IMG/VR virus record: IMGVR_UViG_3300032233_002382
Coordinates: 243,778-307,777 of that record
Origin: a virus
Lineage: Duplodnaviria; Caudoviricetes
Length of the DNA: 64,000 nucleotides
Reading direction: 5' to 3' (one strand)
Position numbers and translations under genes: made by a program
The notes under the pieces: generated by a model
The model's input: the letters and a program-made list of their open reading frames with translations, nothing else
What the model was told of the DNA's origin: nothing
The model's database searches: none
Part shown: in pieces, positions 3,317-54,493 of the stretch
Numbering within the stretch: position 1 is the first letter of the stretch
Layout: each line of letters begins with the position of its first letter

Positions 3317-5986
3317 TTAGAAGGCGTCCAATTCGACCACAAGGTCAGCGGATGAAAGACCGGAAGAGCCTACGACCTCAACCGAAAAGAATTCCCCTAG
3401 TTGGAGATCCTCTGATACGGTATAGCAAGTAGCTAGTTTATCAGAATTAGATAGAGTAGCAGTCATGGCGGTAGGAAACCCAGAACCTGAAATGCCAGTA
3501 GAAGAACGTTTTAACGTCACAGTCGTCGTCTTTCCCGTTCCAGGCGGGACCCGAAGTGTGATCATCATCCCTTGTATGATCATCTTTTGCTGGGCCCTCA
3601 TAAACACTTCGGTGTTGTCGAGATTCGTCACAAGAGTACCGGGCCACATATAGTGAGCAGGAGAGGCATCTACATTTCCTTTAAGACCAAAAGTGAATAA
3701 CATAGGGGTGACGTAAGTAGTGAAGGGCCGTTGACCGGCAGTCTTGTTTACAAGATCGCAACCGGGACCTAGCTGAATCCCGTAGGTGATGAATCCAGAT
3801 CCGGGACTTGTCTGCAGAATATCCGATCCTGAGTAATTCAATAAAGTGAAAATCAATGAATCAGTACCAACTACACCATTAGTGAAGCAGGTCCAAACAG
3901 ACCCAGAATAAGTTCCACCATATACTCGAGTGCTAGCATTTAATGAGGATGACCCGACAGGAAAATCATTAGCGCGAGTCCACGCGCCTCCACTATTAAC
4001 TATCCAAATACCATTGTTCGTTCCAACTGTCTGGCCAGTGGCTAATACTTGCATGCCAGTTGTCAAAGCGACGCCCTGAAGTGTGTAGGCGCCTGTCAAA
4101 GCGATATTAGTGGTCGCAGCTACCACAACAGGTAATTTAGTGGTAGAAGTAATAAAGGGTGCGCTCCCGATAGAACTTGTTCTGAATTGAGCGGAACCTA
4201 ATGAATTCGATGATGAGACGCCTACATAGCTTCCGGTCGAATTGATATCTGTAGGCTCTCTTACGTAGATATTGGTATCCCGGAAAGTGATTTCGGTCGC
4301 AGTTGTTATATCAACCCCGCGTTTATTACCGCCCCCATTCGAATAAATATTTACGGTTACGCCACGTGTGAAATTAAAACTAAATGCTGAGTTACCAAGC
4401 AAAGTAGACCCGTTCGCCAGTATTCCTGTAACGTTTGTAGAAGCCGCTGCAGATAGTCCGGAGTTGTCGACAGTGATAACGGCGGTGCGTAGCTTACTGG
4501 TGCCCGATGTATTGCCGGGCAGTGCGATACCAACCAAGTTAGTCGTTGAATTACTAGAATTAAGCTGAAGATTCAGGTCTTCAACACGACTGTTTTCACC
4601 CATAGTGAGCATCGTGACAACGCCACCGGGGTTAGAAGCATTCATCAGGATCTTAGTAGTTTGAACGTTTTGACCACGCATCGCACAACCAGTTGGCATC
4701 GTCAAACCGGTTGTTGAACTTGAAAGCGTATAAGTTCCAGGCATGATCCAAAGCGTAGCGGGAGACCCGAAAGAAGCGACCGCAGATAAACCAGCTTCGA
4801 CTGTCTTAAATGATCGACCGTTTACAGAGCCCGTGGCATCATTACCGTTAACGATATCAACTACTGCAACATTACCTAACCCGCCTAAACCCGGAAGCCC
4901 AGAAGGTCCGATCGCTCCAGTAGGTCCGATCGGACCCGTTATGCCCTGAATTCCTTGAATTCCCTGGCTCCCGGTTGCGCCGGTCGGCCCTTGAATGCCT
5001 TGTATTCCTGAGGGACCAATGGGGCCTGTGGGGCCTTGTAGACCAATAGGCCCTGTAGAACCAACCGATCCAGTTGCGCCAACAGGACCGGTCGGGCCCG
5101 TTAAGCCAATCGGTCCGGTCGAACCTGTGGGACCAACAGATCCATTAGGACCAGTCGGACCTACTATTCCGCCGTGAGTAAGAGCATGGATTACTCCATA
5201 CTGATCTTTCCAGTATAATTCATCATCGGATACCTCAGTATATATAGAGCCTCTTGGGACGTCGATGCCTGGGGTGGGAGTAAGAACTACAGCAGTAGGA
5301 TCCGATATTAACGAAACTGTGTTTCCACCAAAGTATGCAACCGTATCTGGATCTAAACCTCCGGCACTACCGGAACCAGAAAGTAGCACTCGAGTTTTGC
5401 CGAATGGTAGTTTTAAAACTACTCCAGAAAGTGACGCAGCAGCGATATTAACGCCAACGCTACTAACATCGATTCGATATGTTGCTATATTATAGCCCGA
5501 TAAATCGGTGCTTTTGTGTACAGCTAGTATAGGATAATTACCATTTAAACCGGCAAAAGCACCAGATAATCCTGACACCTCGACAGTTTCATATCTAATG
5601 AAGCCAAAGGATTCTGCAAAATCGAGGACGAAAGACAGTGTATCATTCTGACGTTGTACGTTGTTAACTAGAGCTGTTAGGGGAGCTCCGGTCTTAGTAG
5701 TACCGCCTTCGTCTTTGTGATCCTTAAGCAAAAATACGAAATCCGCCGTAATTAAACCAGCTTGGACGAATTTAAATATGCTTCCCTCCTGGAGGGAAAG
5801 CATGGAACGGGATGACATAGGGACGTCGACATAGCCGCCGACCGGTACGTAAACCGGAACTTTTCGGTGTTGGTACTCCAAACCAGTATCAAGATCATTT
5901 ATTTGTACTGATGTTATATTAGGCGACCCGTCCGCCATGAGACCAGTATGAGTAAGACGCACATAAAAAACAGTCAGATTATTCAT
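3317..5986 (-). CDS. tail fibre-like protein with collagen-like segment and beta-rich domains
   Basis: About 30 Gly-X-Y triplets; beta-helix-like T/S/N/G-rich region; [24 protein letters not shown]...NNGIW...GAWTRA module typical of phage fibre proteins. Confidence 0.7.
4874..5161 (-). repeat. collagen-like (Gly-X-Y)n coding repeat
   Basis: [19 protein letters not shown]...[12 protein letters not shown] within ORF 3317..5986. Confidence 0.9.
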
Positions 5987-6005
5987 GTGGAGGCCTCAAG
6001 ATAGG

Positions 6006-6018
6006 TGTAATTTGACAT
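6006..6018 (+). promoter_or_regulatory. TG-TANNNT -10 element directly before a start codon (leaderless type); example of a recurring motif
   Basis: TGTAATTT-gacat-ATG. The same pattern precedes starts at 12217, 13480, 16487, 49214, 52540 (minus) and 53115 (plus). Confidence 0.6.
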
Positions 6019-7719
6019 ATGCATGGTAGATCTATACCTCAATATTTCATTAGAAATCCACCTGAAGAACCAAGATATCAAGAAAGACTCAAGTTAGAGC
6101 TAAGTTGGTTTGAAAATACGGTAGCTGAAGACTACATACTGACCGTAGCTGAAATATGCCGCAACATTAGAGACATACCCCATACGATCAGGGGATCCGC
6201 TGGATCGAGCCTTGTCATATACCTTCTTGGCATCTCTGACATCGACCCAGTTAAATGGAATATAGCTCCAGAGCGATTCTTTCATCCGAAACGCAAGGAT
6301 CTCCCCGATATCGACTTGGACTTTCCAGATATAAGAAGAGAAGAAGTATTTGACAGAATTCACCAGTTGTTCCCAAATCGAACAGCACGAATATCGAATC
6401 ATATAACATACAAAGACAAGAGTGCGATTCGCGAGGCGATTCGTAGGTTAGGAGTTCGAAAAAAGCTGCCTCGAGGCTTTAAAATACATGAAGTGGTACC
6501 GGGTCGAGAGACCGATGCAATAGAAATAGCGGCAGATCTAAAGGGGCAAGTAAGAGATCTATCTCTACACTGCGGTGGAGTCATCGTGTTCGACAGAGAA
6601 GTTCCGCCAGACATTCGGATGAAAGAGAAAAAAGGCCAAATTAGAATCGATAAGTTCGAAACCGATATCATGAACTATTTTAAAATCGACATTTTGTCTA
6701 ATATATCGCTAACTCAGCTCAATGATTGTGATTCAAGACCAATACTAGAATATCCTCCTGAAGACGCAAAAATCACTGAAATGCTTAGCCAGGGAAAATC
6801 TTTAGGTATTACGCAAGCAGAATCACCAGCATTTCAGAAAATGCTAAGAGCAGTCAAACCTAAAAGCGTAAACGATATGATAATGTGCATGGCGCTTATT
6901 AGACCGGCGTCAGCCTGGAGAGGTCATAGAGTTAACTTCATGGAGGAATGGAATAAAGAACGAGATACTGAATTCCTTATATTCGAGGATGACGCCACGA
7001 AAGTAATTCAAGAGATATCAGGTCTTTCGGGTCCCGAAGCTGACGCTCTTAGAAGAGCATTTGTTAAAAGAGACCACGAAGCCACTGAAGATTTCAGAAA
7101 TCTGATATCACACCGAGATGATGCTCAGACGATCATAGATGATCTTGAAGCATTCAGGTCGTTCAGCATGTGCAAGTCCCACTCAGTTGCATATGGTCAC
7201 GTGGCCTGGGCATTAGCGTGGCAAAAAGCACACAACACGAAAGCCTTCTGGAAGTCGGTGCTTAACCGAACTCAACCAATGTGGAGACCGTGGGTCCATG
7301 TCGAAGAAGCCAAGCTTGCTGGATGGAAAGTGATCCCAGGAAAGAGACCATTTGCAGTGAAAGACGATACGCTTATCGGGCAAGAGTACGTACCGCAGTT
7401 ATTTAAATCGGACCCATGGTGGGAGCTTAAAAAGTATAAAATGTGGTCAGGAAATGAGTTCCCTAAAGAGTGTTACCGAAGCGATGACGGAGAAAGAATT
7501 GAATTCTACGGAATAATCGGAACGCACCGGATACTTAAGAGAAAAGATGGACAAGCAGTCACGTTTGCTACAATAGGAACATCGCCAGGATCATATGTAG
7601 ACTTGATACTAGAGGGAGCTATAGACCTAAAGAGGTATCAAGCAATTCAAGGCAACGGTGAATTAGGGATTAAATTCGGCTCCGAATTTACGAAAGTCAA
7701 ACAGTACTCTATACTTTAA
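6019..7719 (+). CDS. dnaE: DNA polymerase III alpha (family C), compact, lacking the PHP domain
   Basis: RGSAGSSLVIYLLGI.DIDP, PDIDLDF, HCGGV, KIDIL and F.KSHSVAY motifs; only 566 aa. Confidence 0.88.
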   Translation: MHGRSIPQYFIRNPPEEPRYQERLKLELSWFENTVAEDYILTVAEICRNIRDIPHTIRGSAGSSLVIYLLGISDIDPVKWNIAPERFFHPKRKDLPDIDLDFPDIRREEVFDRIHQLFPNRTARISNHITYKDKSAIREAIRRLGVRKKLPRGFKIHEVVPGRETDAIEIAADLKGQVRDLSLHCGGVIVFDREVPPDIRMKEKKGQIRIDKFETDIMNYFKIDILSNISLTQLNDCDSRPILEYPPEDAKITEMLSQGKSLGITQAESPAFQKMLRAVKPKSVNDMIMCMALIRPASAWRGHRVNFMEEWNKERDTEFLIFEDDATKVIQEISGLSGPEADALRRAFVKRDHEATEDFRNLISHRDDAQTIIDDLEAFRSFSMCKSHSVAYGHVAWALAWQKAHNTKAFWKSVLNRTQPMWRPWVHVEEAKLAGWKVIPGKRPFAVKDDTLIGQEYVPQLFKSDPWWELKKYKMWSGNEFPKECYRSDDGERIEFYGIIGTHRILKRKDGQAVTFATIGTSPGSYVDLILEGAIDLKRYQAIQGNGELGIKFGSEFTKVKQYSIL

Positions 7720-7770: not shown

Positions 7771-7998
7771 TTACTTAGAGCTCGGACCTGATCCTTTGAC
7801 CGGAGGCTTAACGGGTTTTTCCTCCCTGACGACCTTTAAAACATAACAGCCAACGCCAGCTGGTGTTGCTGCTAGCGCAGCCGCTTCTGAATCCCAGGAA
7901 GCTGTTTTCTCATGCCCTATCGAACTAACCCAAGCGTTTTCGGTCGATAGGAAATGATGAGTTAGATCATTCTTTAGATAGAATTTAGAGGTCGCCAT
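7771..7998 (-). CDS. small hypothetical protein
   Basis: 75-aa ORF following the Gly-rich gene. Confidence 0.55.
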   Translation of the reverse strand: MATSKFYLKNDLTHHFLSTENAWVSSIGHEKTASWDSEAAALAATPAGVGCYVLKVVREEKPVKPPVKGSGPSSK

Positions 7999-8007
7999 TA
8001 ATTACTC

Positions 8008-10020
8008 CTACATAGCGCTGACGCCGGTATGCTTATACCAGTCGCCAGCGCCAGTGCTTGAAGTGGTAAAGATGCTAGTCGCTAAATCAGCGGCCAAGCT
8101 AGCAGTTATGTCGCCTGCATCCCAAGTATTTAAAGTCGCCTTCGCTGGCATGCTGGTCGCTTGGAAAACGACCGGGATACCGGGACCGCGAGGCCGAATC
8201 TTCGAATCCGGGCGATCAACAACGTTTACTATCTTAAACTGGCACGTGCCAGATAGGTAAACATTCGAGTCGAAAGCCGGTACCGCGCCAGCGCCTGCAC
8301 CGTCTAAGCAATTTAAATCTTCTACAAACATCCCGCCGTCCGCTCCCACAAATGTTGAAGCAGCCCCATTTATGGCGGCAGCCGCATCCAAAGACGCGTT
8401 TGAGTCACCACCAGACGCTTCAAGGTAGGCGCACGTTAACCGACCGGAAATGCTAATGTAACCGCCATCTCCGCCGTTATTCCCAGTCCCAGTACCTCCG
8501 TTAGCATATAGATTGTCGATGATTGCATCTCCTGAAACGAAAAGCTGCCCACCACTACCACCAACACGATTGGCGAAATCGGTTATCACGGCACCGCCAC
8601 GAATATTCATCGTATCACAGATTACGTCACCGTCGACGTAAATATTGCCGCCATTGCTACTGGATCCGGCCAAATTGGCGACGGTCGTATTGCCGAGGCG
8701 GTCTCCACCATCGAGGTCAATAGTGTTATTAGCTACATTAAGGTTACGACAGTTTATTTGGCCTCCATAACCCGCGTTGTGTGTTTCATCAGCTGAATTG
8801 CAATATCCGCCGTTTCCGGCGATATAATCACTAGTAAAATTGCCCTCAACGCTCACATACCCACCATTACCCCCCGAACCATTATTGGCTGAACCACCAA
8901 AGAATTCAAAATTTTGATCGCAAATTAAATTACCCCCAACCGAAATGTAAGCGCCATTGCCACCGTTTCCACCAGTTGCAGATTCACCATAGGCATAAAA
9001 TTCATCGCAGGTTAAACTTCCGAGGACGTAAATACTACCACCTGACCCGCCGTTACCACCGTTGCCGGAGCCACCATAGATTTCGATTTCATCGCAGACA
9101 ATATCACCATCGACGTCTATGACAGCGCCATTGCCTCCATTACCTGCATTACCGCTACCGCCGCTACACCAAAAATCGTCAACATTTGCTGAACCATTTA
9201 CATAAATGATGCCAGCATTGCCGCCGCTTAAATCTCCCCAACCACCCGCAAGACGAACATCGCCGCTTGATAAATAGCCATTTATGTCGATGAAACCACC
9301 CGAACCTCCATCAGACCCATTACCGTAACCACCGTCTAAATCTAAAGTTCCAGTGCTAGTGAAATTCCCGTACACATACATTGACCCAGCACCAGCAGCA
9401 TTAAATCCAACTTGTCCGTCTCCGCCTTGCAAACGAATACCACCGTTTATGGCCACATCACCATAAACATCAAAGGTGCCGCCAGTACCGGCTGCTAATA
9501 CCCCATCAGAGTTAGCACCATCAAGGTATACATCACCAGTATACCAAGACCCGTAAACAATAATGTCAGCACCATTGGTTGCGGTATTGTCGACAGCCTC
9601 AGCTGTAAAGGGCGAACCGCCGCCGCCTAAGGTGCCATATACGCTTCCAGCCACTCTAAAAGTCGCTTGTGAACCACCACACTGAGGCCAGTAAAAATTC
9701 GTATAATAGAAAGATCCACCGACTGTGATGTTGCCTTGAGGAACCGTAATGTCAGCGGGCGTCATATCCCAGTTATGGGCTATCACATCACCTTCGACCT
9801 CGACCGAATGGCCGTCGGGACCGATCAAATCTCCGACTACATATAATGTACCTTTAACCAACACTGGACTAATAACGTTTACATTTCCTTCGCAGTAGAC
9901 ATTGCCGGAGTATGTACCGTCGAGATCTCCGCCATTCGGGATAACGGTGCCACCACCGCCACCACCGCCGGAATAAACGGTGGTGAATAATGTGCCGAAT
10001 CCATCATTTGCAAGAGTCAT
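8008..10020 (-). CDS. glycine-rich repetitive beta-solenoid protein (putative fibre/adhesin)
   Basis: Repeats of the form GGxGxxGNGGxGxxIxVxGxLxCDE along 670 aa. Confidence 0.6.
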   Translation of the reverse strand: MTLANDGFGTLFTTVYSGGGGGGGTVIPNGGDLDGTYSGNVYCEGNVNVISPVLVKGTLYVVGDLIGPDGHSVEVEGDVIAHNWDMTPADITVPQGNITVGGSFYYTNFYWPQCGGSQATFRVAGSVYGTLGGGGSPFTAEAVDNTATNGADIIVYGSWYTGDVYLDGANSDGVLAAGTGGTFDVYGDVAINGGIRLQGGDGQVGFNAAGAGSMYVYGNFTSTGTLDLDGGYGNGSDGGSGGFIDINGYLSSGDVRLAGGWGDLSGGNAGIIYVNGSANVDDFWCSGGSGNAGNGGNGAVIDVDGDIVCDEIEIYGGSGNGGNGGSGGSIYVLGSLTCDEFYAYGESATGGNGGNGAYISVGGNLICDQNFEFFGGSANNGSGGNGGYVSVEGNFTSDYIAGNGGYCNSADETHNAGYGGQINCRNLNVANNTIDLDGGDRLGNTTVANLAGSSSNGGNIYVDGDVICDTMNIRGGAVITDFANRVGGSGGQLFVSGDAIIDNLYANGGTGTGNNGGDGGYISISGRLTCAYLEASGGDSNASLDAAAAINGAASTFVGADGGMFVEDLNCLDGAGAGAVPAFDSNVYLSGTCQFKIVNVVDRPDSKIRPRGPGIPVVFQATSMPAKATLNTWDAGDITASLAADLATSIFTTSSTGAGDWYKHTGVSAM

Positions 10021-10024
10021 GGAT

Positions 10025-10438
10025 TTATCCTAGTCTAATGAGGAAGGTTAAGGCGCCACCTGTGGTATTGGTGATGGTAGTAGTAGTAAACGCCGCGTTA
10101 TGAACGGCGTTGAAGGTACCGGTAGCATCGACCCAAGTCGGACCTACCGCTTTAACGACGGAAACGTCGGGCGGCAAACCGAAATTGTGGTTTAAAACCA
10201 CATTCGCTCCGCCAGCTAGGGTGACGTTATCTTCTAAGGTAATGATGCCATTATCGCGCCACTTACGTAAGTCGCCCTTGAATGCGGAACGAATTACTTC
10301 GGTGGTATTCGGTAAATAGACCGACTGACCAGGATTAAGATAACGGTCCTCACCCTGACGACCTTCGGTCTGGGCCTGAGCTATGAACCGAAGATCGTGA
10401 AGATATATACGGATTGTAGAAACGTTTGTGATTTTCAT
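10025..10438 (-). CDS. virion accessory protein sharing an N-terminal module with the 889-aa fibre
   Basis: DL...YLNPGQSVYLP...S..KGDL.KW...GII aligns by eye with the N-terminus of ORF 3317..5986. Confidence 0.55.
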   Translation of the reverse strand: MKITNVSTIRIYLHDLRFIAQAQTEGRQGEDRYLNPGQSVYLPNTTEVIRSAFKGDLRKWRDNGIITLEDNVTLAGGANVVLNHNFGLPPDVSVVKAVGPTWVDATGTFNAVHNAAFTTTTITNTTGGALTFLIRLG

Positions 10439-12232: not shown

Positions 12233-13480
12233 TCAAACTAGAACATGCTTGTTGTTACTCTCTTCAGATGAATCACGGTTGCGCCAATATGGGGGTTGGT
12301 ACCTCCATCGTCGGAAGCTACGACCTTCACCGTAGGCCTGGCGCATCCAAAAACCCGACACAAGCGTGCGAACTCGACGGACATTTATACTTTCGCTCGA
12401 GTTTTCTTCCGGGCTCCAAAGGGTTATGGAACGCCCAAGTCTAATTCGATTTTGAGGTATCAACTTCTTAAATCGATCTTTAAGGTCATCTTTCTTTCTT
12501 CCCTTAGGCAACTTCGAAATTCGATTCCATAAAGCCCTAGCTTCGTCATTGGCCATGAAGTGCTCGACCTCAACATCCGGCCAGGTGGAATACATAACAA
12601 CATTCATCGCCCAATTAAAAAGGCCTTTCCATTCAGTTCGAAAAATATCACGAGCTTTCTGGTCGATGATGAGAGTGCTATCATCGACCACCCTTTGCTC
12701 ATTCGAAAGAATGTCTGAAATCGGCGTGTTCTCAGGTAGCTCTATACTAAAGTGAAAAAGAGCATCGTCGAAGGCATTAGTACCATCATGTGCTGTTCCA
12801 ACAAACAAAAATCTCCACGTTCTGACAGGCTTTGAAGGATCCTCTCCTACAGGGTCTTCCGTAAGATAAAATCCCTCAAGTTGATGCCAGCCCGTTTCTT
12901 CATTATATAGCCGAAGATTATTCGACTCAGACTTAGGGATCATCACATAGATACTGGCATAAGGCATGCGCAAATCATCGGAATTTATTCCACGCAACTC
13001 AGTATGCCGTAATCGTTCAGCCAAACCCGGCGAGACTTCGTACACTTTCTTTCCCGCGTGCTCATGAATCAGATAACACCAATTCTGAATCATTCCAGTC
13101 AGCGCTGAAGCATAGAACGCTTTTTCATCAAGATTGGGATTGTATGACTTGTAAGCAGAAAGTACCATAACATTAAACTGCTGCATCAAATCAGAATTGG
13201 CAGATAAAGAAAAACTATATGGAGTCGAAGCCGACTCCATCGACTTCGAAAGAATCTCAATAGTCAGAGCAGCCAGCTTTTGAGTGTAAGGATTAGAGTA
13301 AAATCGGTCATCCACCGCCTTCGAACGAATCGAACTACCCGAACCAGAAATAATGCTCTGAGATTTCAAGTTATGTAGATAATTCGCATAGCAAAGCAAG
13401 CCTAGTTTCTCGAAATCCTGCTTAGCTTCTGTACGCTTGCTATTAAAGAATTTGTAAGCACGTTCCCAGTGGGTTAGCAT
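12233..13480 (-). CDS. conserved-type phage hypothetical protein
   Basis: 415 aa; C-terminal V.GFW.RQAYG.G......PYW resembles a widespread phage (R/H)GHW..Q.YG motif family. Confidence 0.6.
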   Translation of the reverse strand: MLTHWERAYKFFNSKRTEAKQDFEKLGLLCYANYLHNLKSQSIISGSGSSIRSKAVDDRFYSNPYTQKLAALTIEILSKSMESASTPYSFSLSANSDLMQQFNVMVLSAYKSYNPNLDEKAFYASALTGMIQNWCYLIHEHAGKKVYEVSPGLAERLRHTELRGINSDDLRMPYASIYVMIPKSESNNLRLYNEETGWHQLEGFYLTEDPVGEDPSKPVRTWRFLFVGTAHDGTNAFDDALFHFSIELPENTPISDILSNEQRVVDDSTLIIDQKARDIFRTEWKGLFNWAMNVVMYSTWPDVEVEHFMANDEARALWNRISKLPKGRKKDDLKDRFKKLIPQNRIRLGRSITLWSPEENSSESINVRRVRTLVSGFWMRQAYGEGRSFRRWRYQPPYWRNRDSSEESNNKHVLV

Positions 13481-13528
13481 AGATTAATTTACACTAAACA
13501 AGAGTCCGCAATTCAAGACGCACATACG

Positions 13529-14037
13529 CGTGGGCCTCGACGGATATCTCCGTCGAGGCCCACGTTGGAAGGAAGCTTGATTTCGAACTTGATTCCGTTT
13601 AGAGAATCCGTCGCACCAGTCTTACCTACCTGCTCCACGGTCCTTATCGCAGATTACGCTGCGACCGAATCGCGTGCACCCATTCTAGTTTAACATCTCT
13701 CGACGCTAAACCAAAACCGGGACCAAGCCGATCTAGTAACCATCGCTGGTTACCGACCGAAATGGCATGTCGCGCCACGACAGGTATCGAACCACCTTGT
13801 TTAAGGGTTTGGCTCGAGACGCCATAAGAATCGCGACATTGCCGACAGCCAAGAGAACGACTCTCATCGTTCAAATGCGTTTCCGGCTCCGCAGTTGCCT
13901 ACACTAGACCGCTCTAGTAAACGACAACAAAGGAACGACAGTCACTAGACTCTTCCGAGTATTTCGAGACCCCTTCTTTCAAGGCATCTCTAATCGACTG
14001 GCGCATAATAGCGCGCCGATAAAAATTCTAAAAATAG
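13529..14037 (-). ncRNA. candidate large structured non-coding RNA (family not identified)
   Basis: ORF-poor ~500-nt gap with a minus-strand TG-TAATTT element at 14043-14050, many short hairpins and a 16-bp terminal hairpin at 13529-13564. Confidence 0.5.
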
Positions 14038-14056
14038 TAAGTAAATTACACGTCTT

Positions 14057-14722
14057 ATGTATCGTGTAGGCATGAGTGTAGATAAGATAAGGATAGCCAA
14101 CCGGATTGCTAAAGGGAAAACATCAGAATTGGTTGGTCAGGACCCAGACGTAAATCCGGACCTTAAAAATCCAGAGTCAGTTTCTGGACATAACGATCTA
14201 ATAGATATCCCCAACGTACGTCAATATAATGATTTTACGTGCGGATCTGCATGCTTGCTGGCGATACTGGCTTATTATGGGAAATATGACGGTAGAGAAG
14301 ACGACCTCGCAAGCGAATTACGAACAAATCCGATAAACGGAACAAATGCCGATGACATAGTTAAAATCGCAAGAAAGTTCGGCCTAAACGCAGAGCGTAG
14401 AGAAAACGCGGACCTTAAAATAATCGAATCATCACTTAGACGAAAAACGCCGATTATAGTGAACTTTCAAGCCTGGAGCGATTCTGGATCAGACTACAGG
14501 CACAGCAACGAGGATGGTCACTACGCCATAGTAACAGGCATGGACGACGAAAACCTGTATTTTCGAGATCCATCCATGAACGGAAAGATCGGCCGATTAT
14601 CAAAAGCAGATTTTATGCAAAGATGGCATGACGAAGACGCACAATCTGACGTGGAACGGATGTGCATACTATTTCACGATAATATGATCCCTAGAATCGA
14701 AGAGATAGAGTATATAGGATAA
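14057..14722 (+). CDS. C39-like cysteine peptidase with N-terminal RIANRIA motif
   Basis: Q...FTCGSACL (Cys), GHYAIVTG (His) and FRDP (Asp). Confidence 0.85.
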   Translation: MYRVGMSVDKIRIANRIAKGKTSELVGQDPDVNPDLKNPESVSGHNDLIDIPNVRQYNDFTCGSACLLAILAYYGKYDGREDDLASELRTNPINGTNADDIVKIARKFGLNAERRENADLKIIESSLRRKTPIIVNFQAWSDSGSDYRHSNEDGHYAIVTGMDDENLYFRDPSMNGKIGRLSKADFMQRWHDEDAQSDVERMCILFHDNMIPRIEEIEYIG

Positions 14723-15470: not shown

Positions 15471-15742
15471 GAGTTATGAACCTTATAAGATACACATTCT
15501 TCAACAGTATGCATTGATCTAGATTGATCATTCTCGAATTCCATAAAACACTCTGAACACATCGGGTTTATCTTGAATGCACTTCTAATCCCGGCATAGT
15601 CGATGGGATTCTTAATAGGAGAAATCATCCTTTGAAAAAGTTCGTTAGTTTCGTCGGTCGAGAGGCCGTCACGCGATACGCGCTTCACTTGATTATCTAA
15701 GAGAGCTTTGAGAGACGCCATCTTCTTTTCCCTATCGATCAT
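15467..15742 (-). CDS. Cys/His mini-protein, divergent family member 5
   Basis: ...CSEC...HTVEEC...VHNS. Confidence 0.65.
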   Translation of the reverse strand: MIDREKKMASLKALLDNQVKRVSRDGLSTDETNELFQRMISPIKNPIDYAGIRSAFKINPMCSECFMEFENDQSRSMHTVEECVSYKVHNS

Positions 15743-15950
15743 GGACCACTTCCGCTAAGAATTCTTCGCACTTTGGGATAGCTCGATACTCCATCGAACC
15801 GCTATTAAAACACGACATTATTCGACCGACAACAAACCAGTCATAATTCGGACTGGTCCAATAACCGGCCGACGTAAGATAACCACACAACTTGCATTTC
15901 ACTATGACGTTTCCATGAATCTCATGACTTAAAATCCAGTCATGCTCCAT
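15732..15950 (-). CDS. Cys/His mini-protein, family member 4
   Basis: MEHDW...CKLCG...CEE...VHDR; start reassigned to the ATG at 15950. Confidence 0.7.
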   Translation of the reverse strand: MEHDWILSHEIHGNVIVKCKLCGYLTSAGYWTSPNYDWFVVGRIMSCFNSGSMEYRAIPKCEEFLAEVVHDR

Positions 15951-16134
15951 GGATTGTCCCCATGAGTATTTCTTCACAGGTTAGATAAGAAGAATTCTTT
16001 AAAATAGGATCCACAACTAAGAGCCAACCATCCTTAGATGGGTTATATGAACCCACAAAAATATAACCACACATGTCACATTTAAACGTTTTGAGACCAC
16101 CTGATTCCTTGAGTAAAACCCATTCATGAAGCAT
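15940..16134 (-). CDS. Cys/His mini-protein, family member 3
   Basis: MLHEW...CDMCG...TCEE...IHGA. Confidence 0.7.
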   Translation of the reverse strand: MLHEWVLLKESGGLKTFKCDMCGYIFVGSYNPSKDGWLLVVDPILKNSSYLTCEEILMGTIHGA

Positions 16135-16318
16135 AAATATTCCAGATTATTATTTCTTCGCAGGTCATATACTTTAAATCCTGAATCATATGGCTTCCGG
16201 ATAATACTTTCTGGGCAGGAAACGGCATATTCACATCTCTAAACAAAGAACCGCACAAAAGGCATTCGAATTCTTTGTAGTACACACCCGGCGTCCTACA
16301 TTTCCATTTATGAGGCAT
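16124..16318 (-). CDS. Cys/His mini-protein, family member 2
   Basis: MPHKW...CLLCG...TCEE...IYAS. Confidence 0.7.
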   Translation of the reverse strand: MPHKWKCRTPGVYYKEFECLLCGSLFRDVNMPFPAQKVLSGSHMIQDLKYMTCEEIIIWNIYAS

Positions 16319-16487
16319 GAATATAATTCACCATCACATCATGATAGGTCCTAACGTCCACTAATTCATTATCACGTTCAACCCAATGTGGGTTGGGCTT
16401 CTGATTAGGATCAGAAAGCCTACACCAACTATTACAATTTAAGCATTTCCAAATATTCGAGTAAATTAACTGCCAATCATGGGCCAT
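16308..16487 (-). CDS. Cys/His mini-protein, family member 1 (59 aa, below the ORF-track cutoff)
   Basis: Manual translation: MAHDWQLIYSNIWKCLNCNSWC...VNYIHAS; preceded by TG-TAAGTT-N5. Confidence 0.7.
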   Translation of the reverse strand: MAHDWQLIYSNIWKCLNCNSWCRLSDPNQKPNPHWVERDNELVDVRTYHDVMVNYIHAS

Positions 16488-16495
16488 ACCATAAC

Positions 16496-19317: not shown

Positions 19318-19355
19318 CGAATCGGCCCTGGACGTTTCCATCCAGGGCCGATTCG
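19318..19355 (-). terminator. intrinsic terminator after the major capsid gene
   Basis: 15-bp stem cgaatcggccctgga / tccagggccgattcg with a T-rich tail on the minus strand. Confidence 0.75.
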
Positions 19356-24154: not shown

Positions 24155-24192
24155 GATTCGGGCCTAGAAGGATTTCCTTCTAGGCCCGAATC
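24155..24192 (-). terminator. hairpin terminator
   Basis: 17-bp stem gattcgggcctagaagg / ccttctaggcccgaatc. Confidence 0.7.
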
Positions 24193-24199
24193 TAACTGC

Positions 24200-24406
24200 T
24201 TAGTCCTTCTTTTGAACGAACGTGTACATTTCGGAAGCCACCTTAGTAATTTCCGAAACCGTAGGTACGGGCACTTCTTTGGGTGGCCGATTGTCTAATT
24301 CGGCGGCCCGACGCTCGATTTCCACCTTCTGATGCCAGTCTTGCATCAGGTGATCACGAGCTTCGTGCATCAAAGCGTGCCTAATCTCAAATCCATTAGA
24401 TCCCAT
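24200..24406 (-). CDS. small conserved-type phage protein (FEIR...P....I...A...Y.FV)
   Basis: 68 aa, GGAGG SD, structured 5' leader. Confidence 0.65.
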   Translation of the reverse strand: MGSNGFEIRHALMHEARDHLMQDWHQKVEIERRAAELDNRPPKEVPVPTVSEITKVASEMYTFVQKKD

Positions 24407-24483
24407 GACGCCCTCCGTGTGTGTTGACAGACCTTCATGGTCTAGTCATAGAGTCTGGGCTTGACTCTGAATTACCTTACTAA

Positions 24484-25206
24484 TTACATTATATCTCGAG
24501 AATGGATAGAAAACCCGCAGGATCGGCATTGCTTTATGTTCTTGCCCTGACGATACCTTCGGTCATACATCTTAGTAGCGCACCTAGGACACTTGATTAT
24601 ACCCGTAGCCTTCTCTCCCTGAGAACGCTTATACTTCCGGTTCGCGTTGCCCCAATATAAAGCAAGACGACGACCCGCACCATAAAGATTTTTCACAGTG
24701 CGATCGACGGTATCAAAACCATAGATGTGACCACATTCGCTTGCCAGACGATTTGCAGCGGTGACTTCTTCTACCCCATCATGGAAAAGTTGGCAGGCCT
24801 TAATGTAGAGAGGCTGCGTAAAAGACTCGAAGTCCGAGACAATATCAGAAGCTAAGCTTTTGCGCCATTTCTCATCCGACTTGGCGCTCTCCTCGGTGTT
24901 CATATACCGAGATTTTTCATAGGTCGAATAGCTCTGATCTAACTTTAAGGGAGGTAAGAAATCCACGGACCCAGCCCGAACCAACTCCGTCGGCACTTCC
25001 AGATAAGCTCCGAACGGCCACTGAACCATTACAACGCCGGTTTCAGTATTCGAGTAAATCACCCGACCCACATACGGGGTCATAAGCGTATCGCGATAAT
25101 TTGCACGCCGAACAATATCGCCAGCTCTAAATTCTCGAGCCATCTGCACATTGTCGACATAAGCCGTTTTGTTATGCATGGTATACCTCAAATACAAGTG
25201 ATCCAT
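24484..25206 (-). CDS. protein with N-terminal SH3/KOW-like domain and C-terminal zinc ribbon
   Basis: F..GD.VR...GRV...G.V.VQWP and CPRC...CRSC. Confidence 0.6.
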   Translation of the reverse strand: MDHLYLRYTMHNKTAYVDNVQMAREFRAGDIVRRANYRDTLMTPYVGRVIYSNTETGVVMVQWPFGAYLEVPTELVRAGSVDFLPPLKLDQSYSTYEKSRYMNTEESAKSDEKWRKSLASDIVSDFESFTQPLYIKACQLFHDGVEEVTAANRLASECGHIYGFDTVDRTVKNLYGAGRRLALYWGNANRKYKRSQGEKATGIIKCPRCATKMYDRRYRQGKNIKQCRSCGFSIHSRDIM

Positions 25207-25248
25207 GAAGAGGTTAACTCTTCATGGATCACTAGATATTGTATCTGA

Positions 25249-43097: not shown

Positions 43098-43580
43098 CTA
43101 CTTCGTTTTGAGAATATTCCCAAGCTCTTGAAGAGCCTCATTCCATTTACCGTGACGAAGAGCAATTTCTGGGAATTCTTGGACCTGGGGCGAACGCAAA
43201 GTATATTTCATTTCGCCGGTCTTAGGATCTTCTTCACCCACGCATCTCATCAGCAAGTGGTCAACCAAGGCCACACGAGCGTGTTCGTTCAAGTCATTCC
43301 ACACATCCAGAGCCACGACCATTATGAAGTCGCACTCACCACCACACAGGTGCTTATCCATGGGAGAAGCCTTCTTAACGTATCCTGGAATCTTCTCCTT
43401 CGCTCGCGTTGACGCTTTATTTCGACAGAGAAACCGGAATTTAGCACTGCTAATATACGGGTGATATCTTGAAATTAAAGTCTTTGATATTTCTGCGGAC
43501 GCTTCATGGTCATCGAAAAGTAGAGGGATCGAAACCGACTTCTCTTTAGTGTTACGAACGGCATCATTTTCGGTAGTCAT
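43098..43580 (-). CDS. phage metallopeptidase-like protein (degenerate HExxH)
   Basis: DFIMVV..D.W..L....R.ALVDHLLMRC ... P.VQEF.EI..RHG pattern. Confidence 0.6.
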   Translation of the reverse strand: MTTENDAVRNTKEKSVSIPLLFDDHEASAEISKTLISRYHPYISSAKFRFLCRNKASTRAKEKIPGYVKKASPMDKHLCGGECDFIMVVALDVWNDLNEHARVALVDHLLMRCVGEEDPKTGEMKYTLRSPQVQEFPEIALRHGKWNEALQELGNILKTK

Positions 43581-53062: not shown

Positions 53063-53114
53063 GTATATACCCTCATTTGCACATTTCAAAAAGGATCTAG
53101 TGTAAAATACTACC

Positions 53115-54218
53115 ATGAATAAAATAAAAGAATTAAGCGAACTGGTACTAAGAGCGCAAGAAGCATACTATAACCTCGATCCAATTATGTCTGACGCGGA
53201 ATATGATGCTCTACACGACGAATTAAAAAGACTGAACCCTGAAGCTCAAGCCGTAGTCCGAATAGGAGCCGCACCCATTTCGCAGTCCCCATGGGAAAAA
53301 CGACCACATGAGATACCTATGGGTAGTCTAAGCAAAGTTACAACCGTAGACGAATTTGAAGAATGGGTTAAGGGGATTGGGGATACAGAATATTTTATAA
53401 CAGACAAATTCGATGGGATATCGTTAGAATGTATATATGATGAAGGAATATTTCAGCATGCGGTCACAAGAGGAGACGGAATAGTCGGAGAAGACGTTAC
53501 TAAAAACGCCACTTACATACCGAACATCCCAAAGACGATCACGATAAAATCTAGAGTAAGCGTTAGGGGTGAAGTGATCCTTACCAAAAAAGCCTTCAAG
53601 GACCATTTCTCAAGCAAGTATGCAAATACTCGAAATACGGTGGCTGGCAAAATTAGAGATACTAAAGAAGGAACGGTTGCAGCTGTTCATTTTAAATTCA
53701 TAGCGTTCGATCTAATAGGGATTAACACGGAGAGTTTCGATGCAATGTTTAAAGAATTAAAAAGATTCGGGTTTGAATCCCCAGATTTTCACGTGTCAGG
53801 AAACCACCATAAGGTTTACGAGGAGTATCTCAAGAGAAAAAATGACAGAGAAGCTTTGGATTATGATATTGATGGATGTGTGATTAATGTCAATGAAAGA
53901 ACCAAATTCCTAGAGTTGGGTAATGAGAACAGTAGACCACTAGGAGCTGTGGCGTTTAAATTCGATCCAGCAATGGCCGTATCTAAAATCTTAGATGTCA
54001 AGTGGTTTACTGGAAGCACCGGAAGAGTTAGCCCGGTAGCAATAATCGACCCCGTGAACGTGCAAGGAGTGGTGATTTCTAGGGTGTCTTTACAGAATAA
54101 AGAAGCAATGCTTAATCTCAAATTGTTTAAAGGAGCCAGGGTACTAGTATCTAGAAGAAACGATGTGATACCGTACTTACAAGAAAACCTTGATATTAAT
54201 TCACAGGATGAGTTTTAG
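53115..54218 (+). CDS. ligA: NAD-dependent DNA ligase, N-terminal part (domain Ia, adenylation, OB)
   Basis: YY...P.MSDAEYD, H..PMGSL.K, KFDG, A.TRGDG..GEDVT, VRGEV, NTRN..AG, IDG.V, AFKF, TGRV.P and RRNDVIP; stops before the Zn finger. Confidence 0.92.
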   Translation: MNKIKELSELVLRAQEAYYNLDPIMSDAEYDALHDELKRLNPEAQAVVRIGAAPISQSPWEKRPHEIPMGSLSKVTTVDEFEEWVKGIGDTEYFITDKFDGISLECIYDEGIFQHAVTRGDGIVGEDVTKNATYIPNIPKTITIKSRVSVRGEVILTKKAFKDHFSSKYANTRNTVAGKIRDTKEGTVAAVHFKFIAFDLIGINTESFDAMFKELKRFGFESPDFHVSGNHHKVYEEYLKRKNDREALDYDIDGCVINVNERTKFLELGNENSRPLGAVAFKFDPAMAVSKILDVKWFTGSTGRVSPVAIIDPVNVQGVVISRVSLQNKEAMLNLKLFKGARVLVSRRNDVIPYLQENLDINSQDEF

Positions 54219-54450: not shown

Positions 54451-54493
54451 TACTAATCGGCCCCTGCTAATCAGTAGCAGGGGCCGATTAGTA
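54451..54493 (-). terminator. terminator hairpin after the RNR gene
   Basis: 19-bp stem tactaatcggcccctgcta / tagcaggggccgattagta. Confidence 0.75.

Follow-up and report, generated by a model that had tools for sequence, protein, structure and literature searches.

Few large RNAs with an intricate fold are known from bacteria and phages, most of them without an assigned function. The closest to the subject of this report are the ROOL (Rfam RF03087) and GOLLD (RF01998) RNAs; a comparison with the phi29-type packaging RNA (pRNA, RF00044) is also made below. ROOL and GOLLD are reported to form RNA-only multimeric assemblies (bioRxiv 10.1101/2024.12.08.627333). They are borne by phages or prophages, exceed 400 nt, are many-stemmed, have their own transcription signals and many loops of the GNRA type, and their biochemical function is not known. 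Apart from the reported assembly, these features are shared by the element described here, a conserved RNA block of ~505 nt on the minus strand (13522..14030) of the window, i.e., the final 64 kb of the 307.8-kb IMG/VR virus record IMGVR_UViG_3300032233_002382 (CheckV completeness 72%). The block most likely represents a new family of large structured non-coding RNA in phages.

The resemblance to ROOL and GOLLD is one of kind only, not of membership. A covariance-model search of the whole window against Rfam 15 at gathering thresholds gave no match, in agreement with an initial annotation that had proposed an ornate RNA but could not assign it to a family. At E ≤ 10, only two trivial matches of 13–14 bits were obtained for the region 13300–14200, and the RNA blocks of the relatives L006, L008 and L017 (see below) gave no match at E ≤ 5. 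The families covered by these searches include ROOL, GOLLD, OLE, HEARO, raiA, RNase P, tmRNA, SRP, 6S, group I and group II introns, and pRNA. ARAGORN detected no tRNA or tmRNA in the window. Compared with ROOL and GOLLD, the RNA described here does not match their models at E ≤ 10, is shorter, and consists of abutting hairpins without an evident multi-way junction; moreover, it is not located beside tRNAs and has been found in only a few uncultured giant phages.

With pRNA it shares the property of being a structured RNA encoded by a phage, and its conserved loops are possible contacts; pRNA acts in trans within the particle. However, pRNA comprises ~120–174 nt and has a two-domain fold with intermolecular loop pairing, whereas no conserved complementary loop pair was found across the lineages of the present RNA, apart from a possible A/U-rich pairing of its 5' tail with the P2 loop. 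A row of many hairpins in an RNA of 350–500 nt with a final terminator is also found in protein-sponge RNAs of the CsrB/RsmZ type, but the repeated GGA loop motifs of the latter are missing here, and a CsrA sponge was rejected on the absence of such loops. Since each loop is distinct and individually conserved, the block appears to have a single defined fold and not the repetitive design of a sponge. A survey of structured-RNA candidates in IMG/VR (Comput Struct Biotechnol J 2023, PMC10690425) drew on the data source used here and on comparable evidence, namely conserved intergenic structure in phage contigs; its candidates have a mean length of 67 nt and had to be represented by at least three distinct IMG/VR regions. 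The present RNA, with its ~505 nt and no second IMG/VR representative in our pattern scans, is unlikely to be among them.

Homologues and covariation

A search with the AcrVA2-like protein encoded downstream of the RNA block led to contigs with a similar gap upstream of the orthologous gene. RNA blocks were found in three other phage lineages, represented by L008 (a Logan contig, identified via AcrVA2-like relatives), L006/L172, and L017. L006, an ENA assembly, has the same sequence as L007/L173 (Logan) and L172 (JGI) and thus stands for three samples; L017 stems from a metagenome collection and was found with a pattern derived from the most conserved island, P2. The blocks align over their full length with 63–69% identity between lineages, which is about equal to the identity of the DNA of the adjacent protein gene. 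A second sample of the window phage (L183) is identical over 5.5 kb and offered no microdiversity to exploit.

Applied to a plain MAFFT alignment, RNAalifold predicted 101 pairs, 55 of which show pair-keeping changes on both sides; when only the three independent lineages were considered, 93% of the consensus-pair cells were canonical. In a control in which the 3' partner was slid by 1–3 columns, 36–47% of the cells were canonical and 6–9 pairs had double changes. Realignment of the 5' domain to a covariance model resulted in 96.4% paired cells, as compared to 77.6% in shuffles, and in double changes at 18 of 35 pairs, as compared to 11.6 in shuffles; none of 500 shuffles reached either value. 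Stems were also extended outward from homologous loops, a test which is less dependent on the alignment, with several of the loops picked by eye. Window and L008 have 61 bp in common, with 29 double and 4 single changes, and window and L006 have 59 bp in common, with 25 double and 8 single changes; in the latter count one L006 loop was misplaced, and the correct helix was confirmed in a base-by-base check. Within the 96%-identical pair L006/L017, a clean swap of C-G to U-A occurs in the terminal stem. A structure-aware aligner of our own yielded an alignment no better than that of MAFFT. Although short of R-scape-grade statistics, the size of the covariation effect is convincing, and the covarying homologues named as a check in the initial annotation do exist. 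The many covarying helices across lineages that characterize the descriptive class "large ornate non-coding RNA" are represented by eleven elements common to three lineages, which gives limited support.

Folding, strand specificity and coding potential

Dinucleotide shuffles served as controls for folding. The minus strand of 13529–14037 has a minimum free energy (MFE) of -221.9 kcal/mol, while the shuffles gave -165.6 ± 6.2 kcal/mol (z = -9.07), and after removal of the terminal hairpins at both ends z was still -5.95, so that folding better than that of shuffled controls, another check named beforehand, was borne out. Homologues folded without their terminators gave z values of -4.46 and -4.05. 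The plus strand of the same region reached just -163.1 kcal/mol, i.e., the minus strand folds better by 59 kcal/mol, and the RNAalifold consensus energy is likewise better for the minus strand (-102.8 versus -78.9). In the window, the structure common to the homologues comprises 155 pairs and has an energy of -192 kcal/mol, as compared to an MFE of -226 kcal/mol. G-U pairs account for 21 of the 155 (~13%), which means that the fold exists on the minus strand only; in P10, for instance, the G-U pairs correspond to C-A mismatches on the opposite strand. The G-U content, the energetic advantage of the minus strand and its better consensus energy point to selection on a minus-strand RNA and not on duplex DNA.

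The block is strongly conserved and lies, in the window, in a divergent intergenic region. It is also richer in G+C than its surroundings: the G+C content of the RNA is 0.52–0.54 and that of the adjacent DNA 0.44–0.49 in each lineage (5–10 points lower), and in the window the values are 0.52 for the block and 0.45 overall. These properties might be expected of a DNA-level element such as a replication origin or a packaging or recombination site, with hairpins that form in DNA or are incidental. We regard this as highly improbable in view of the strand-specific pairing, and because the compensatory changes keep the helices rather than the sequence. Furthermore, iterons and direct repeats were not found, transcription signals bracket the block, and the region is not divergent in the relatives.

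A small or decayed protein gene is even harder to reconcile with the data and can be considered extremely improbable. Open frames of 39–85 codons, counted from a start codon, are present in every copy, and one public assembly has one of them annotated as a gene. However, the frames differ in phase relative to the conserved islands and their translations do not align, and the called open reading frame (ORF) has no relative among 5.8 billion proteins; used as a probe, it matched itself only. The spacings between the islands are 78–80, 30–32, 179–181 and 15–16 nt in the four sequences, and the distance between the anchors A5 and A8 is 187, 186 and 185 nt. The spacing is thus kept within 2 nt, yet the differences are not multiples of three, indicating that no reading phase is maintained. 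The sole ORF in common phase, shared by window and L008, encodes unrelated peptides, with substitutions spread evenly over the codon positions (9/14/10). With ~505 nt and no conserved frame, the block has the length (> ~400 nt) typical of the ornate class. The compensatory changes in homologues, the lack of a conserved frame, the strand-specific folding and the absence of an Rfam match together uphold the proposal of an ornate minus-strand non-coding RNA of ~500 nt, as put forward in the initial annotation.

Architecture of the RNA

The block extends from a relic TAG and an invariant UUUU(A/U)AU tail at its 5' end to the GCGUAUGU tail past the terminator. Eleven elements, designated P1, P2, P3, P5, P6, P7 with the inner P8, P9, P10, P11, P12 and T, are present in all four sequences, according to a helix list checked base by base in each of them. 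Their positions are almost fixed, with offsets of 142 for P6 in all four sequences, 189–190 for P7, 259–262 for P9 and 395–398 for P12, and from P5 onward the linkers comprise 0–2 nt. Invariant parts are the P2 hairpin with its 9-nt loop, the P6 base, the P11 loop G-CGUAAU-C, and a GGAG within the 3' side of P11. GNRA-type tetraloops cap P3, P6, P9, P10 and T, and P5 has a GCGR loop. With regard to the complex tertiary architecture of the ornate class (multi-way junctions, pseudoknots, long-range contacts), conserved GNRA-type loops and short linkers were observed, and the only candidate for a conserved long-range helix is a possible pairing of the 5' tail with the P2 loop. All conserved helices are local or confined to the P7/P8 domain.

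P1 (14000..14017, minus strand) is a 5' hairpin found in all lineages, of which just the 3-bp CGC/GCG core is invariant, without clean covariation. A weak sigma-70-like -10 sequence (TATTAT) overlaps its loop, which makes the membership of P1 in the RNA uncertain. P2 (13966..13990, minus strand), an invariant hairpin of 25 nt with the 9-nt loop UUGAAANAN, is the most conserved element, nearly all of its positions being identical in the four sequences. In every lineage, this loop could pair with the invariant 5' tail (6 bp, A/U-rich) and thereby form a pseudoknot; as both partners are invariant, this pairing is beyond the reach of covariation. P3 (13950..13959, minus strand) is a 3-bp hairpin with a GNRA tetraloop, GGAA in the window and GAAA in the others. 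Its middle pair shows a compensatory change, the window having U-A where the others have C-G.

The two-tier stem P5 (13887..13935, minus strand), capped by a GCGG or GCGA loop, covaries in both tiers, pairing being kept with double changes at seven of eight outer and five of six inner pairs. In P6 (13842..13886, minus strand), the base (CCGG.AAC ... GUCGGC) is invariant, and the distal stem is different in all three lineages but retains its GAGA tetraloop. The P7/P8 domain (13767..13839, minus strand) consists of the long-range helix ATGTCGCG/CGCGACAT, which closes the domain, two stacked inner helices and a C.CU..AAC loop. The closing helix corresponds to CCACGA/TTGTGG in L008 and to CTTCCAG/CTGGAAG in L006, and the inner helices likewise differ in sequence among the lineages while their pairing stays. 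P9 (13722..13766, minus strand) has an outer stem and the inner hairpin GTAACCA-GCGA-TGGTTAC; it is also two-tiered, at equal offset and with other stem sequences, in L008, where the loop is GCGA, and in L006, where it is GGCGGC.

In the 3' part, P10 (13680..13721, minus strand) is a long, G-U-rich hairpin that has 16 + 2 bp in the window and is capped by GAGA. The L008 hairpin keeps the GAGA loop on a stem of 14 bp, and those of L006 and L017 have 12 bp and another loop. P11 (13631..13678, minus strand) is a multi-tier stem closing the invariant loop, with the invariant GGAG on its 3' side; for the inner stem, the window has GTCGCAG/CTGCGAT, L008 has TCAG/CTGA, and L006 has ATTCGGG/CCCGAAT. 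P12 (13567..13630, minus strand), a long interrupted stem with a loop of the U.UAAA type, spans 58–64 nt at equal offset in all lineages and differs in its stem sequences; its distal part is variable even between L006 and L017.

All of the minus-strand hairpins listed in the initial annotation are present in the sequence. Two of the nine, a T-loop-like hairpin (AGGT/ACCT, GGTTCGAT) and GCGA-ttcgg-TCGC, are not retained in the homologues and are in competition with helices that are, the former with those of P8. Three known motifs were considered as well and rejected: a mimic of the Cas12a repeat, since the sequence of the P5 inner stem is not conserved; a boxA/boxB of the lambda type, since a boxA-like word is found in L006 and L017 only; and the 11-nt tetraloop receptor, of which the UAUGG half alone is present.

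A discrete module with a narrow distribution

L172/L006 and L017 are related phages. Their RNA blocks share 94% identity over 552 nt and 96% over the core, whereas the syntenic coding blocks share 73–78% identity. The similarity sets in immediately behind the stop codons of the upstream gene and breaks off just past GCGTATTT, and these sharp edges delimit a unit of ~505 nt. The small genes upstream of it are distant paralogues of each other, and the AcrVA2-like gene downstream in L006 is replaced by unrelated genes in L017. Either the RNA is far more constrained than its neighbours, or it has been exchanged lately as a cassette; in both cases the block is no appendage of either neighbouring gene.

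A discrete module that is highly identical within diverged or replaced flanks, and that is not present at the corresponding site of the related contig L004, might also be a selfish mobile RNA element without an ORF, intron-like or ribozyme-based, that spreads among phages. This is very unlikely, given that Rfam intron and ribozyme models did not match even at E ≤ 10, that neither an interrupted host gene nor an exon pair is seen, and that the RNA is a single copy in the genome with an ordinary phage terminator at its end. The exchange of gene cassettes at gene boundaries explains the modularity equally well. Phage group I introns resemble the RNA in length (250–500 nt), in their GNRA loops and in a module-like distribution. 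Nevertheless, the RNA interrupts no gene and ends in a terminator, and a group I intron was rejected because a divergent gene starts 25 nt upstream, Intron_gpI did not match at E ≤ 10, and long-range P3/P7 helices were not found.

Pattern scans returned one further authentic copy, L017. The P2 island pattern had 0 matches in IMG/VR and 8 in JGI metagenomes; apart from L017, the latter (7 matches) are due to chance. A three-island pattern matched six IMG/VR sequences, none of them real, and more than 120 sites in GTDB genomes, with none real among the first 120; nine IMG/VR matches to a 3'-domain pattern were also spurious, six of them representing one unrelated G+C-rich sequence family. A profile-anchored search based on the AcrVA2-like alignment yielded 27 distant loci in IMG/VR, in none of which nhmmer finds the RNA, and a single-protein search of IMG/VR with both flanking genes yielded one distant peptidase locus that does not contain it either. 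The covariance model R1, built on the 5' domain, recovers every known copy; it had no match in seven large phage records, namely five complete or near-complete IMG/VR phages of 150–450 kb, a peptidase relative, and LR756508.1 (484 kb), which is the nearest deposited huge phage as judged by DnaE (35% identity). A blastn comparison of the region with GenBank phages gave no match. As found here, the RNA family is rare and limited to a small clade of uncultured giant phages.

Transcription signals

The perfect 16-bp stem which the initial annotation placed at the end of the RNA is present at 13529–13564; with its GAUA loop and the following CGUAUG it constitutes a predicted terminator (13523..13564, minus strand). 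Double changes in this stem number four between window and L008, seven between window and L006, and one between L006 and L017. Five other long perfect hairpins occur in the window on the minus strand (2374–2409, 19318–19355, 24155–24192, 25197–25233 and 54451–54493), at positions compatible with minus-strand gene ends. The class is characterized by a perfect hairpin of 14–19 bp followed by TATT, GTATT, TGTATT or CGTATG, without a U-run, and the RNA block ends in a putative terminator of this phage's own type.

At the other end, the promoter-like 9-mer GTGTAATTT (14043..14051, minus strand) points into the RNA, with a predicted transcription start at ~14036. It had been described as a leaderless-type element without a start codon, and indeed no ATG, GTG or TTG follows it at the distance typical of real genes. 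Of the four genomic copies of the 9-mer, two are located at a distance of 5 nt from the start codon of a real gene. Strand-switch genes are preceded by the motif (G/T)TGTAAWWT, with an ATG after 5–6 nt, with sites at 6005–6021 (+), 13494–13478 (-) and 53100–53117 (+) of the window and at 43102 (+) and 8836 (-) of G000:C1; the genes behind it, which require a promoter of their own, include two on the plus strand (6019 and 53115) as well as the AcrVA2-like gene (13480). This suggests that the motif is a -10-like promoter giving rise to leaderless mRNAs. A sigma-70 scan of the region found nothing above shuffles and was uninformative. In the window, the 9-mer sits exactly at the junction of the RNA with an apparent insertion (see below), a position that would fit selection to keep the RNA expressed.

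In L006, L008 and L017, the block follows directly after the stop codon of a small gene of the MxHxW type (see below), with neither a terminator nor a promoter motif in between. It might be a structured 3' untranslated tail of this upstream operon, stabilising or processing its mRNA. Such a role is unlikely, since in the window the upstream neighbour is inverted, so that no co-directional mRNA is available, yet the block is intact. Besides, one hairpin would suffice to stabilise an mRNA, rather than 500 nt with invariant loops and fixed offsets, and the block is better conserved than the upstream gene, in the place of which L006 and L017 have distant paralogues.

On the downstream side, the promoter-like sequence GTGTAAATT (13486..13494, minus strand) lies outside the RNA, 5 nt before the ATG of the AcrVA2-like gene, and its TGTAA is retained before the start codon in L006 and L008. 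Having a promoter-like element of its own, the gene appears to be separate from the RNA unit. This bears on the view that the block is a cis-acting leader, resembling an attenuator or a riboswitch, which controls read-through into the AcrVA2-like and aminotransferase genes. The location immediately upstream of the AcrVA2-like gene in three of the four lineages, and a terminator that ends the block ~45 nt before that gene, would suit a leader. We nevertheless judge it quite unlikely, in light of the conserved TGTAA and because the 96%-identical RNA of L017 precedes unrelated genes. In addition, the terminator is a perfect stem of 16–20 bp for which no alternative pairing was seen, and the AcrVA2-like genes of L004, L009, L010 and the 27 IMG/VR loci lack the block, so that the linkage is not constant.

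Genomic neighbourhood

Nearly all genes of the window are located on the minus strand. The RNA occupies a gap of 576 nt (13481–14056), and the gap described in the initial annotation as the largest one without a credible ORF is thereby confirmed as real. It is flanked by two gene starts, those of the AcrVA2-like gene (PF26125; 12233–13480, minus strand), downstream of the RNA, and of an inverted Peptidase_C39 gene (14057–14722, plus strand), which begins 25 nt upstream of it. Two other long apparent gaps were examined, and both contain small genes. One of them, 15978–16495, is occupied by MxHxW-type ORFs. In the region 24193–24483 (minus strand), 290 nt between a gene stop and a terminator fold with z = -3.1; it probably represents a small gene rather than an RNA, as judged by eye from an ORF of ~70 aa behind GGAGG.

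The MxHxW genes are tandem small genes (59–87 aa) whose products start with M-x-H-x-W, end with a C-E-E motif and contain C-x-x-C pairs. The cluster is found at 15732–16487 (minus strand) in the window, and at L006:2515–3439, L008:380–643 and L017:9613–9849. In the relatives, these genes are immediately upstream of the RNA; in the window they are 1.7 kb upstream, separated from it by the genes of a SpoU methyltransferase and of the inverted Peptidase_C39. The segment 14057–15292, which carries these two genes, is not found at the matching position in L006, L172 and L017, and seems to have been inserted between the RNA and the cluster of small genes. Weakly similar copies of MxHxW genes are present at 43–58 kb of the genome.

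A block of genes for proteins of 137, 670 and 78 aa is located downstream of the aminotransferase gene in the window (7774–10438); in L004 (1–1623) and L017 (10011–12691) it is found upstream of the position of the RNA and the AcrVA2-like gene, reflecting a rearrangement within the clade. The region L017:7274–9073, which corresponds to L006:4001–5248, comprises a 44-aa ORF with a Shine-Dalgarno sequence, ~470 nt of non-coding DNA (8471–8938) and an unrelated gene for 398 aa, with the synteny around it otherwise retained. The 161-kb phage contig L009 contains two AcrVA2-like paralogues (4001–5224 and 6412–7548) that are 1.2 kb apart, neither of them beside the RNA.

Proposed function and significance

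The block probably is the gene for a stable, compact RNA of ~505 nt. In the window phage, this RNA would be transcribed alone from the 9-mer element (14051–14043), starting near 14036, whereas in the relatives it would be made by read-through from the MxHxW gene directly upstream. It would act in trans in the infected cell and form an RNA-only or RNA-protein particle, in the manner proposed for ROOL and GOLLD, and would make its contacts through the invariant P2 hairpin, P6 base and P11 loop.

Several points weigh against this interpretation. The consensus structures were scored on the alignments from which they were derived, with a helix list made partly by eye, and three independent lineages are below what R-scape-grade statistics demand. 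P1, P2 and the P6 base are invariant and contribute no covariation. Neither a multi-helix junction nor a conserved long-range helix was found in the RNA, and a string of hairpins is less typical of ornate RNAs. L004, whose AcrVA2-like protein is the nearest (63%), has just a 70-nt spacer with a terminator at the site. The assumption of an own promoter, made in the initial annotation, has moderate support: the motif points into the RNA, but the exact 9-mer occurs four times in the genome, which is about the chance expectation, with one copy inside a gene, and it is not found upstream of the RNA in L006, L008 and L017, where the RNA comes directly after the small gene. Action in trans and particle formation are suggested by analogy with ROOL and GOLLD only, and our evidence for the RNA consists of its nucleotide sequence and that of its homologues.

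A bolder possibility, which we consider rather unlikely, is a phage RNA class with an activity of its own, be it an RNA-only assembly, a ribozyme, or a decoy that disarms host defence, exchanged among phages as a cassette. The usual place of the RNA, in a variable region beside a gene of the AcrVA2-like anti-CRISPR family, would fit a defence decoy. If such a class existed, its activity or recognition would reside in the invariant P2 hairpin and in the CGUAAU loop.

As to the gene for a stable, compact RNA that we favour, each new class of large RNA has opened work in RNA biology or structural biology. The ~505-nt unit has clear boundaries, and its size is suited to in vitro transcription, chemical probing and cryo-electron microscopy, for which a cultured host is not required. 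That these uncultured phages of at least 300 kb keep the RNA more faithfully than the neighbouring protein genes suggests that it has an important role in infection.

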